Below are positions 55,877-56,745 of a stretch of DNA of 64,000 nucleotides, one piece after another; the first letter of the stretch is position 1, and every line of letters starts with the position of its first letter. The notes under the pieces were generated by a model that was given only the letters and a program-made list of their open reading frames with translations, had not been told where the DNA came from and made no database searches. Both the position numbers and the translations under genes were made by a program. This DNA comes from Clytia hemisphaerica (Eukaryota): NCBI RefSeq assembly GCF_902728285.1, contig NW_027104315.1, positions 275,032-339,031 of the forward strand, written 5' to 3'.

Positions 55877-56745
55877 TACCGTCGCTGATCTGGTATTTCG
55901 AAGTTTTTAGTTATTTTGCTTTTGGCGGCCGCCTTTTTCAGAGGCGGCCGCCTTTTACAAAGAGCGGCCGCCTATAATACTGGCGGCCGCCTTTTATAAT
56001 AAGTGGTCACCCTTTTCCTTCGAAAAAGGAGGCCGCCCTTTGTAACTGGTGCCCACTCTTTATAACAGGCGGCCGCCCTTTAAAAACGCGACCGCTATTT
56101 ACAAAGGGCGGCCACGTTTTATAAAAGGCGGCTGCGTCTTTTACCGCCTTTTTCATAATCTGGTCTGTGAAATACAAGAGTCGTCAATGTTATTTTGTAC
56201 TAGGACTAGCACTAGCTATTTTGTTTGAAAGTTGTCAGGATTGATGATGATTCTGTCCCAGATTCTGAAAATAGCAAAAAGCAATCTAAAAACAGTATTT
56301 ATAACTTGTCATATCCTGATTCCTCCATGTTTTGGTCTTCTTCGCCAAGATTCCTTCTCACCACACTCACCACATACATAAAATCACATGGGTAGCTACC
56401 ATGTTTGTTTATGTTTAGCCAATACATTTCACAGACCAGATTATGAAAAAAGCGGTAAAAAACGTGGCCGCCCTTTATAACTGACGGCCGCCCTTTATAA
56501 ATAGCGGCCGCGTTTTTAAAGGGCGGCCGCCTGTTATAAAGAGTGGGCGCCAGTTACAAAGGGCGGCCTCCTTTTTCGAAGGAAAAGGGTGACCACTTAT
56601 TATAAAAGGCGGCCGCCTATAATATTATAGGCGGCCGCTCTTTGTAAAAGGCGGCCGTGGATTATAACTGGCGGCCGCCTCTGAAAAAGGCGGCCGCCAA
56701 AAGCAAAATAACTAAAAACTTCGAAATACCAGATCAGCCACGGTA
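55877..56745. mobile_element. Foldback-type element: about 330-bp TIRs built of about 22-bp subrepeats containing GGCGGCCGCC, with a 230-bp spacer
   Basis: The left terminus taccgtcgctgatctggtatttcgaagtttttagttattttgcttttggcggccgcc matches the reverse complement of the right terminus with 1 mismatch. Confidence 0.65.

Follow-up and report, generated by a model that had tools for sequence, protein, structure and literature searches.

A foldback-shaped inverted-repeat element in Clytia hemisphaerica with features of IS3EU/GingerRoot transposons

The window considered here is a 64-kb stretch of the Clytia hemisphaerica genome (64,000 nt, analysed in full). It encodes a spliced actin of 376 aa that is identical to C. 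hemisphaerica XP_066923529.1 and XP_066930006.1; one actin copy in the window carries a 1-nt frameshift, which could be an assembly indel. Scans of the window for Rfam families and tRNA genes found none, and a Pfam scan of ten window ORFs recovered reverse-transcriptase fragments only and no DNA transposase. Within this window lies an inverted-repeat element of 869 bp (55877-56745), 71% of which is made up by its two arms. A preliminary description had placed a long inverted repeat with NotI-site subrepeats at exactly these positions, and on both points it is borne out: all 11 NotI sites of the window fall inside the element. The element interrupts an interspersed host repeat, a second copy of which, free of the insertion, occurs elsewhere in the window. 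The features are as follows.

35622-35960, forward strand: host-repeat paralog without the insertion (the empty site), colinear with the joined flanks
55780-55870, forward strand: left part of the host repeat interrupted by the element, aligning to 35622-35719
55871-55876, no strand: left copy of the flanking duplication, ATTTGG, from comparison of filled and empty sites
55877-55923, forward strand: left terminal domain of the terminal inverted repeat (TIR), 47 nt, unique and non-repeated, starting with TA as 5'-TACCGTCGCTGATCTGG
55924-56146, forward strand: left outer domain, about 11 units of 19-20 bp with consensus AAAGGCGGCCGCCTTTTATA (TRF periods 19 and 20)
56147-56173, forward strand: left inner domain of the TIR, the CCGCCTTTTTCATAATCTGGTCTGTGAAAT region, which is the last non-repeated stretch pairing with the right arm
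56174-56425, no strand: middle domain (loop) between the arms, 252 nt, 36% GC, non-coding
56426-56698, reverse strand: right inner and right outer domains, about 12 units (arm alignment; TRF periods 20 and 39)
56699-56745, reverse strand: right terminal domain, ending ...CCAGATCAGCCACGGTA-3', its end coinciding with the start of paralog homology (56746/35720)
56746-56751, no strand: right copy of the flanking duplication, ATTTAA, extra relative to paralog 35720-35727
56752-56994, forward strand: right part of the host repeat (BLAST of 56746-56994 against 35720-35960, 89% identity)
62828-62966, reverse strand: partial third copy of the host repeat, from sequence match

The left arm (55877-56173) is 297 nt long and the right arm (56426-56745) 320 nt. 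Aligned to each other they give 284 matches, 11 mismatches and 27 gap positions, so that the earlier picture of arms of about 330 bp differing at one or two positions has to be given up. Nine of the 11 substitutions are transitions, and the gaps include one whole 20-nt unit, by which the right array is longer than the left; the left array is broken by an irregular segment at about 56003-56027. The two terminal domains differ only by a C/G transversion at 55883. The element starts with TACCGTCGC and ends with GCCACGGTA, giving TA...TA termini, and these boundaries are fixed independently by the empty site.

The subrepeat has a period of 19-20 bp by TRF, shorter than the unit of about 22 bp first proposed; there are some 11 recognisable units in the left arm and some 12 in the right. 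The unit consensus TATAAAaGGCGGCCGCCtTTTATA is palindromic and consists of a perfect dyad, AAAGGCGGCCGCCTTT, and a TATA spacer. Its GC-rich core GGCGGCCGCC occurs eight times in the window, each time inside the element, where none would be expected by chance. Full-text literature searches for GGCGGCCGCC returned primer sequences only. The motif TTTGGCGG may resemble E2F sites.

A sequence of this kind could in principle be an artefact of assembly or cloning, either a chimeric foldback read or a NotI-rich adapter or vector: vectors and linkers often carry NotI sites, long-read data contain palindromic chimeras, and the frameshifted actin copy elsewhere in the window may itself reflect an assembly indel. 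We regard this origin as scarcely credible. The arms are set apart by 11 substitutions and a whole-unit indel, unlike those of a self-folded read, the loop is unique sequence, the flanks show no inverted duplication, and the boundaries coincide with a 6-nt duplication; a BLAST search with the element matched none of 72,556 plasmid records.

ORFs in the element do not exceed 59 aa, and an 84-aa stop-to-stop frame running into the loop had no homologue among 5.8 billion proteins. BLAST found nothing similar to the loop elsewhere in the window, and the element has no second copy in these 64 kb. A search of metagenomes with the terminal 20-mer gave one match, a chance one inside a GC-rich bacterial contig; viral-contig matches to a two-unit pattern were set aside as three unrelated coding repeats. 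With its long TIRs built of subrepeats and its non-coding middle, the element matches the flanking, outer, inner and middle domain scheme of foldback elements. [quoted passage not shown]

The paralogous host repeat preserves the site without the insertion. When the flanks are joined without 55877-56745, they align across the junction to 35655-35960 (E = 2.9e-100, 84.7% identity over 321 columns). The empty site reads ...TGTTATAC ATTTGG GGATCATG... and the filled site ...TGTTATCT ATTTGG [element] ATTTAA GGATCATT.... Removal of the element together with one 6-mer gives the top alignment score, 463, against 453, 455 and 449 for the other models; the lowest, 449, belongs to the model in which the terminal TAs are host sequence, which needs an 8-nt insertion in the host repeat. 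The paralog is colinear once the element is removed, leaving the 6-nt duplication, and the block therefore behaves as a discrete insertion bounded by the ends of the inverted repeat. The duplication is imperfect (ATTTGG and ATTTAA, identical at 4 of 6 positions) and is read from one insertion and one paralog at 85-89% identity, so this single case weakly suggests the 6-bp TSD that characterizes IS3EU/GingerRoot elements. The arms have diverged by 3.7% at aligned positions and the host-repeat paralogs by 11-15%, which fits an insertion later than duplication of the host repeat. Comparison with this paralogous empty site thus supports past mobility of the element.

The same comparison bears on whether the block ever moved. 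It might be a local minisatellite palindrome formed by template switching or inverted duplication, or it may have belonged to the host repeat from the start, with the paralog losing it when a hairpin stimulated deletion between short direct repeats. Long palindromes are prone to deletion, the ATTT common to both flanks is a possible microhomology, and the element is single-copy in the window. This origin is nonetheless quite improbable. The paralog lacks the whole block, including both unique terminal domains, with breakpoints exactly at the inverted-repeat ends, whereas a local inverted duplication should have left one arm in the paralog; the arms are far less diverged than the host-repeat paralogs; and features of the termini and of the architecture match those of bona fide transposons from other cnidarians, which are described below.

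Composition and folding raise the further question of a host function. The arms have a GC content of 48.5% and the arrays 53-54%, while the flanks stand at 37.6% and the loop at 36%; the element is GC-enriched, as first noted, though not the extreme island that it was called. The CpG observed/expected ratio reaches 1.27-1.36 in the arms, against 0.84 for the window, an excess that arises from the subrepeat motif itself. Folded as single-stranded DNA, the element reaches -371.5 kcal/mol, compared with -109 +/- 4 for shuffles (z = -63.8), in line with the strong hairpin that had been suggested. A stable fold of this order, a dyad-symmetric GC core repeated regularly every 19-20 bp and high arm CpG are what a gene for a hairpin RNA or small RNA might display, or else a methylation or boundary element of CpG-island type composed of GGCGGCCGCC binding sites. 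That the block is primarily such a functional element of the host is very unlikely. It has no Rfam match, the motif itself accounts for its CpG excess, and a CpG-depletion survey places Clytia among the cnidarians with minimal inferred methylation (PMC8857923). The suggestion of a methylation or boundary-type element in the preliminary description finds no support. The paralog is without the block, which is therefore not a conserved part of the locus, and any such activity would be a by-product of transposon insertion.

If the block is a transposon, its place among known systems can be narrowed by its termini, its target duplication and the structure of its TIRs. The domain plan resembles that of Drosophila FB, sea-urchin TU, Chironomus TFB1 and D. 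virilis Tetris (PMC4079207), a likeness of structure that extends to arms unequal in repeat number and to a non-autonomous character. Most described foldback elements have been assigned to the Mutator superfamily, and the foldback shape can evolve more than once, in separate lineages (PMC4079207). In Tetris the subrepeat measures about 220 bp, compared with 19-20 bp here, and FB/Tetris-type foldbacks, mostly Mutator, have 8-10-bp duplications (8-10 bp in Tetris; PMC4079207), whereas the Clytia element has TA...TA termini and, in the paralog comparison, a 6-nt duplication. The Mutator/Phantom foldback lineage is disfavoured on this ground; the earlier label "Foldback-like" is apt for structure and mobility, but an affinity to the classical Foldback elements is not supported.

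A target duplication of 6 bp is shared with Maverick/Polinton, Ginger2/TDD and Dada. Polinton termini are AG...TC and Ginger2 termini TG...CA (PMC6839031), and Dada has no TIRs and inserts in small-RNA genes (PMC3706591). These groups do not fit the Clytia element, which has TA..TA termini, 300-bp TIRs and an interspersed repeat as its target, in a window without a tRNA gene or Rfam match.

IS3EU and GingerRoot elements agree more closely. The transposase of this superfamily is of the DDE type and has IS3/IS481 transposases and retroviral integrases among its relatives. IS3EU families are described as "always" having TA..TA termini and usually 6-bp TSDs (PMC10045372); GingerRoot elements have TIRs of 100-150 bp, termini that are mostly TA...TA, and TSDs of 6 bp, a length that few transposons share, and their hosts include a coral, a sea anemone and other animals (PMC6839031). 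TA...TA termini, a 6-nt duplication, long TIRs and presence in cnidarians are thus common ground with the Clytia element, which differs in having no transposase, a length of only 869 bp and an imperfect duplication. Since TIRs occupy 71% of those 869 bp, the Clytia element takes the shape of a foldback. Subrepeats within TIRs go unmentioned for these families: "tandem repeat" and "subterminal" occur 0 times in PMC6839031, and none are mentioned in PMC10045372.

With the core of Hydra IS3EU-1_HM as query, five loci encoding IS3EU-type (rva_4) transposases were found (L025-L029); transposases of this type were found in Hydra, Xenia and Sanderia, and tblastn of IS3EU cores against the window gave no match. 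In all five loci 19-bp-period tandem arrays lie beside the transposase gene and nowhere else within the locus. Two of the five (L026 and L028) hold complete elements whose termini are TA...TA and whose 6-bp duplications are perfect. L026, from Xenia sp., is a complete element of 3,337 bp with a perfect ATATAA/ATATAA TSD, termini TACGGTGGC...GCCACCGTA and TIRs of about 300 bp, in which the 19-bp subrepeat is present in 3.7 copies in one arm and about 1.5 in the other. In L028 the TSD, TAAAAA, is perfect, the termini read TATGG...CCATA, and both arms carry 19-bp arrays. The arrays of L025, L027 and L029 comprise 19.4, 13.9 and 4.3 copies, respectively. For L025, the inverted repeats at 8553-8808 and 10963-11207 were rejected as TIRs, being unrelated interspersed repeats, and the true left end was placed by means of the terminal motif.

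By our own observation, the Clytia element shares the architecture of these five loci, in that a terminal domain (47 nt in Clytia) is followed by units of 19-20 bp; the fetched loci likewise have a short terminal domain and then a 19-bp-period array. Its GC-rich dyad core GGCGGCCGCC sets it apart from the five rva_4 loci, whose units are AT-rich. The Xenia element starts with TACGGTGGC and the Clytia element with TACCGTGGC, identical at eight of the first nine nucleotides. Over the terminal 21-mer 13 positions agree, a score equalled by 12 of the 9,143 window 21-mers that start with TA (empirical p ~1.3e-3); agreement with the termini of L029, L028 and L025 (10, 9 and 8 of 21) is not above chance.

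Taken together, the TA...TA ends, the duplication of 6 nt and a 19-bp array set behind a short terminal domain make IS3EU/GingerRoot the most likely affiliation. On the sequence evidence the element is, on balance, probably a non-autonomous, foldback-shaped, cut-and-paste transposon derived from the IS3EU/GingerRoot type, its insertion into an older interspersed repeat having duplicated 6 nt of the target.

Membership of another superfamily (Mutator/Phantom, P, hAT or Tc1/mariner of the IR/DR type), with the IS3EU-like features coincidental in a foldback-type or MITE-like element, is unlikely. Its appeal lies in the predominance of Mutator among described foldbacks and in the capacity of the foldback structure for independent origin (PMC4079207), and in the range of 4 to 10 bp given for TSDs of the IS256/MuDR group (PMC10045372). 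Reading the element as CCGT...ACGG would also give a TA duplication at its two ends, and between the outer motif GATCTGGTATTTCGAAGT and the inner motif AATCTGGTCTGTGAAAT there is a likeness that recalls IR/DR elements, although the estimated chance that these short segments share some 7-mer is about 9%. The IR/DR idea, which was based on ATCTGGT motifs in outer and inner position, did not rise above chance and was given up, and Tc1/mariner with its TA duplication is disfavoured because treating the terminal TAs as host gave the worst fit to the paralog, which prefers the 6-nt duplication. Mutator-type foldbacks such as Tetris are expected to have 8-10 bp instead, and elements with rva_4 transposase genes share the 19-bp-array architecture and, in the case of Xenia, much of the terminal sequence. 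The termini also fit neither the hAT terminal motif YARNG nor the terminal CAGT of Tc1, which we count against another superfamily.

As an IS3EU/GingerRoot-type derivative, the Clytia element would be mobilised in trans by an IS3EU-type transposase whose gene lies elsewhere in the genome. The cleavage site would lie in the terminal domain, and the iterated units may serve as additional transposase-binding sites, by analogy with Galileo and Tetris; because of its dyad symmetry, each unit could be bound by a dimer. Array length may drift through slippage or unequal exchange, which would account for the one-unit difference between the arms. The model adopted for the 19-20-bp units comes from Galileo, an element of the P superfamily with long, internally repetitive TIRs containing multiple THAP-binding sites, whose tandem repeats have been proposed to multiply transposase-binding sites (PMC3688188, PMC3573991; summarised in PMC4079207). 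Galileo differs in superfamily and in its P termini, and binding has been demonstrated experimentally there whereas for the Clytia element it is a prediction. The target duplication of Galileo is 7-8 bp.

A broader proposal, held tentatively and with the balance leaning against it, is that an array of about 19-bp period inside a short terminal domain is a general, so far undescribed hallmark of animal IS3EU/GingerRoot TIRs, of which the Clytia family would be a GC-core dyad (GGCGGCCGCC) variant collapsed into a foldback. A period of about 19 bp recurs in all five transposase-bearing loci and in the Clytia element, with a different unit sequence in each. Some 19 bp correspond to roughly two helical turns, and the transposase might load cooperatively along evenly phased sites; the unit being a perfect dyad, the array would read the same on both strands. 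If this proposal is true, the Clytia element would be the first foldback-type element tied to IS3EU/GingerRoot.

Literature searches found no described foldback elements in cnidarians and nothing relevant on transposable elements in Clytia. To our knowledge, few IS3EU/GingerRoot families have been described, and we are aware of no work on how they transpose. The Clytia element is a tidy, well-formed instance of a mobile element of known kind and leaves the current understanding of transposons unchanged. What is gained is a specific, probable superfamily assignment for a generic-looking foldback, and the suggestion of a conserved TIR design, a terminal domain followed by a 19-bp-period array, which predicts where the transposase binds and could help to annotate non-autonomous members. 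The NotI-site clusters in such elements distort restriction-based mapping, and in Clytia, a developing model organism, the elements themselves are relevant as sources of hairpin RNA and as fragile or recombinogenic palindromes.

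The hairpin-shaped foldback element at 55877-56745 is a discrete insertion that is non-coding, bounded by TIRs, and flanked by a short duplication, and its architecture and ends resemble those of IS3EU-type elements. It is very likely a transposon insertion; our full reading, a non-autonomous foldback-shaped DNA transposon most likely of the IS3EU/GingerRoot superfamily, is favored with somewhat less assurance. The inverted repeat has exactly the coordinates of the preliminary description, and its parts are as follows.

55877-56173, left arm, 297 nt
56174-56425, loop (middle), 252 nt
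56426-56745, right arm, 320 nt
55877-55923 and 56699-56745, flanking domains, 47 nt each, one difference between copies
both arms, outer domain, 19-20-bp arrays
adjoining the loop, inner domain, about 27 nt

The same succession of flanking domain, outer tandem-repeat domain, inner domain, and middle is described for foldback elements such as Tetris (PMC4079207), which bears out the Foldback-like architecture first proposed for this element. Tandem Repeats Finder (TRF) gives subrepeat periods of 19 and 20 bp, with about 11 recognizable units in the left arm and about 12 in the right. The unit consensus, TATAAAaGGCGGCCGCCtTTTATA, has perfect dyad symmetry, and the two strands of the array therefore read almost alike; the arms are true inverted copies because they have register-specific irregular units in common (e.g., GGTCACC...CTTCGAAAAAGG). 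All 8 occurrences of GGCGGCCGCC in the window (0 expected) and all 11 of its NotI sites fall within the element. Aligned with each other, the arms give 284 matches, 11 mismatches (9 of them transitions), and 27 gap positions, one gap being a complete 20-nt unit found in the right arm only. The arms have a GC content of 48.5%, the flanks 37.6%, and the loop 36%. The preliminary description thus had the kind of structure right but overstated arm identity (1-2 mismatches), unit length (about 22 bp), and GC-richness (extreme). Folded as single-stranded DNA, the element reaches -371.5 kcal/mol, compared with -109 ± 4 for shuffles (z = -63.8), and CpG observed/expected is 1.27-1.36 in the arms vs. 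0.84 in the window. For a host role as a hairpin-RNA, methylation, or boundary element there is no evidence, and inferred methylation in Clytia is minimal (PMC8857923). An artefact is argued against by the divergence of the arms and the lack of a vector match among 72,556 plasmid records. The element contains no ORF longer than 59 aa, its 84-aa stop-to-stop frame has no homologue among 5.8 billion proteins, and it is non-autonomous.

Evidence for insertion comes from an interspersed host repeat of about 340 bp with at least three copies, itself unclassified (SINE, MITE, or fragment).

35622-35960, uninterrupted copy
55780-55876 plus 56752-56994, interrupted copy, the foldback target
62828-62966, minus strand, further copy

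In a self-comparison of the window, a second, 89% identical copy of the element's right flank (56746-56994) was found at 35720-35960, and the two flanks joined without 55877-56745 are colinear with 35655-35960 across the junction (E = 2.9e-100; 84.7% identity over 321 columns). The paralog reads ...TGTTATAC ATTTGG GGATCATG..., and the filled site ...TGTTATCT ATTTGG [TACCG...CGGTA] ATTTAA GGATCATT...; the breakpoints therefore fall at the inverted-repeat ends (TACCG at the start, CGGTA at the finish), and the filled site has 6 extra nt (ATTTAA) that match the preceding 6-mer at 4/6 positions. When four models of the removed segment were scored, "element plus one 6-mer" came out best (463) and the one that gives the terminal TAs to the host worst (449). 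The absence of both unique terminal domains from the paralog and the youth of the arms argue against a palindrome that formed locally and never moved, and against loss of the block from the paralog by deletion; arm divergence (3.7%) against that of the host-repeat paralogs (11-15%) would fit insertion later than the spread of the host repeat. Insertion as a unit is supported, not proven, by these alignments, because the comparison is with a paralog rather than an allele. The window holds no second copy, and a metagenome scan for the terminal 20-mer of the element returned one chance bacterial match.

The surrounding DNA is eukaryotic, with a window GC content of about 35%, two intron-containing actin genes, and reverse-transcriptase fragments of non-LTR retrotransposons (Pfam); tRNA genes and Rfam families were absent from window scans.

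19451-20359, plus strand, actin gene 1, large exon
28317-29226, minus strand, actin gene 2, large exon; first exon near 29362-29703
40568-43448, minus strand, decayed non-LTR retrotransposon, RVT_1 and zf-RVT matches, several frameshifted ORFs
51142-51675, plus strand, separate reverse-transcriptase C-terminal fragment

The exons splice into a 376-aa actin that matches XP_066923529.1 and XP_066930006.1 from Clytia hemisphaerica, a hydrozoan jellyfish, without a single difference. The large exons of the two genes, in inverted orientation, are 97.9% identical; a 1-nt insertion near 28618 (GAAACCCCACTAC vs. GAAACCAC-CTAC) breaks the reading frame of the minus-strand copy; either this copy is a pseudogene or the indel arose in assembly. 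Many JGI marine metatranscriptomes contain actin transcripts whose protein product is the same as the Clytia actins (contigs L001-L010 and L015-L024); given the strong conservation of actin, these do not reveal the source species. The closest relatives of the window reverse transcriptases are ENA, JGI, and Logan contigs (45-92% identity), with no annotated Clytia protein among them. A large palindrome (51923-53176 / 53717-54949; arms about 86% identical) lies 0.9 kb left of the element, with no sequence relation to it seen, and consists of about 47 and 30 copies of a 30-nt tandem repeat, one frame of which encodes a proline-rich HSPEPPTPAV-type repeat. Two small self-complementary, MITE-like hairpin repeats, one with two copies 87-95% identical (24548-24732 and 9802-9957) and one at 60543-60708, do not resemble the element. 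Colinear blocks of 72-87% identity (22854-25159 vs. 60896-62484; 12781-13075 vs. 62985-63278) suggest that the 23-25-kb and 61-63-kb regions have in common either a long repeat or an ancient segmental duplication.

Foldback elements have mostly been assigned to Mutator, and Tetris makes duplications of 8-10 bp (PMC4079207), which the 6-nt duplication seen here does not fit. The duplication and the termini speak against Mutator, P, hAT, or Tc1, all of which are disfavored. Published traits of IS3EU and GingerRoot match better: IS3EU families are said "always" to end in TA..TA and usually make 6-bp TSDs (PMC10045372). [quoted passage not shown] Polinton (ends AG..TC), Ginger2 (TG..CA; PMC6839031), and Dada (no TIRs, targets small-RNA genes; PMC3706591) also make 6-bp TSDs and do not fit in their termini or in their TIR and target traits.

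A search with the Hydra IS3EU-1_HM transposase core, taken from the supplementary alignment of PMC10045372, matched 420 proteins, with the Pfam domain rva_4 in all 120 of the matches listed, among them a protein from Xenia sp. and another that traces to Sanderia malayensis, a scyphozoan. DNA was compared for five of these loci (L025-L029), chosen by similarity to that one Hydra transposase.

L025, ENA contig, left terminus TATGGAAGCCGAGGAGTG, then 19-bp array of 19.4 copies (9038-9405)
L026, Xenia sp. (NCBI GCA_021976095.1), complete element of 3,337 bp (9817-13153), array 13032-13102
L027, ENA contig, inverted 19-20-bp arrays flanking the gene on both sides (2500-2640 and 7284-7559; 13.9 copies right), right terminus ...TGTCCCTTCTCGGCCATA
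L028, ENA contig, complete element spanning 1370-4014, each arm with a 19-bp array (1400-1453 and 3925-3980)
L029, ENA contig, terminus TACGGAAGCCGAGAAGGG, 19-bp array of 4.3 copies adjoining the gene (9317-9397)

The Xenia element has a perfect TSD (ATATAA/ATATAA), termini TACGGTGGCCCATAAGGG...CCACCGTA, TIRs of about 275-320 bp, and a 19-bp subrepeat (ATTTCYACGGAGAAGGTCT) with 3.7 copies in one arm and about 1.5 in the other; L028 has a perfect TSD (TAAAAA/TAAAAA) and termini TATGGAAGCCGAGAAGGG...CCATA. By whole-locus TRF, arrays of 19-bp period are restricted to the IS3EU-like element within each locus; in all five they lie just inside the element ends, with unrelated unit sequences, a feature not mentioned in either superfamily paper (PMC10045372, PMC6839031). 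By this five-locus comparison, the Clytia element resembles the members that encode a transposase in four respects: it ends in TA...TA, has a 6-nt duplication and a short terminal domain, and carries a 19-20-bp-period array with copy number unequal between arms. The outermost 21 nt of the element agree with the Xenia terminus at 13/21 positions (8/9 over the first nine); of the 9,143 21-mers in the window that start with TA, only 12 reach that level. Agreement with the three further termini compared was not significant.

An IS3EU-type DDE transposase, encoded at some other place in the Clytia genome, may mobilize the element in trans, with the terminal domain as the putative cleavage and recognition site. 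By analogy with Galileo and Tetris, for which repeated units have been argued to be extra binding sites (PMC4079207), the iterated units would supply additional sites, suited to a dimer because of their dyad symmetry. Array length could be altered by slippage or unequal exchange. Transposition might be cut-and-paste or proceed via a copy-out intermediate; bacterial IS3 transposes through the latter. More tentatively, going by five loci picked for similarity to a single Hydra transposase, the phased array of about 19 bp might characterize IS3EU/GingerRoot TIRs in general, a trait not described before, and the Clytia element might be the first foldback-type member of the superfamily.
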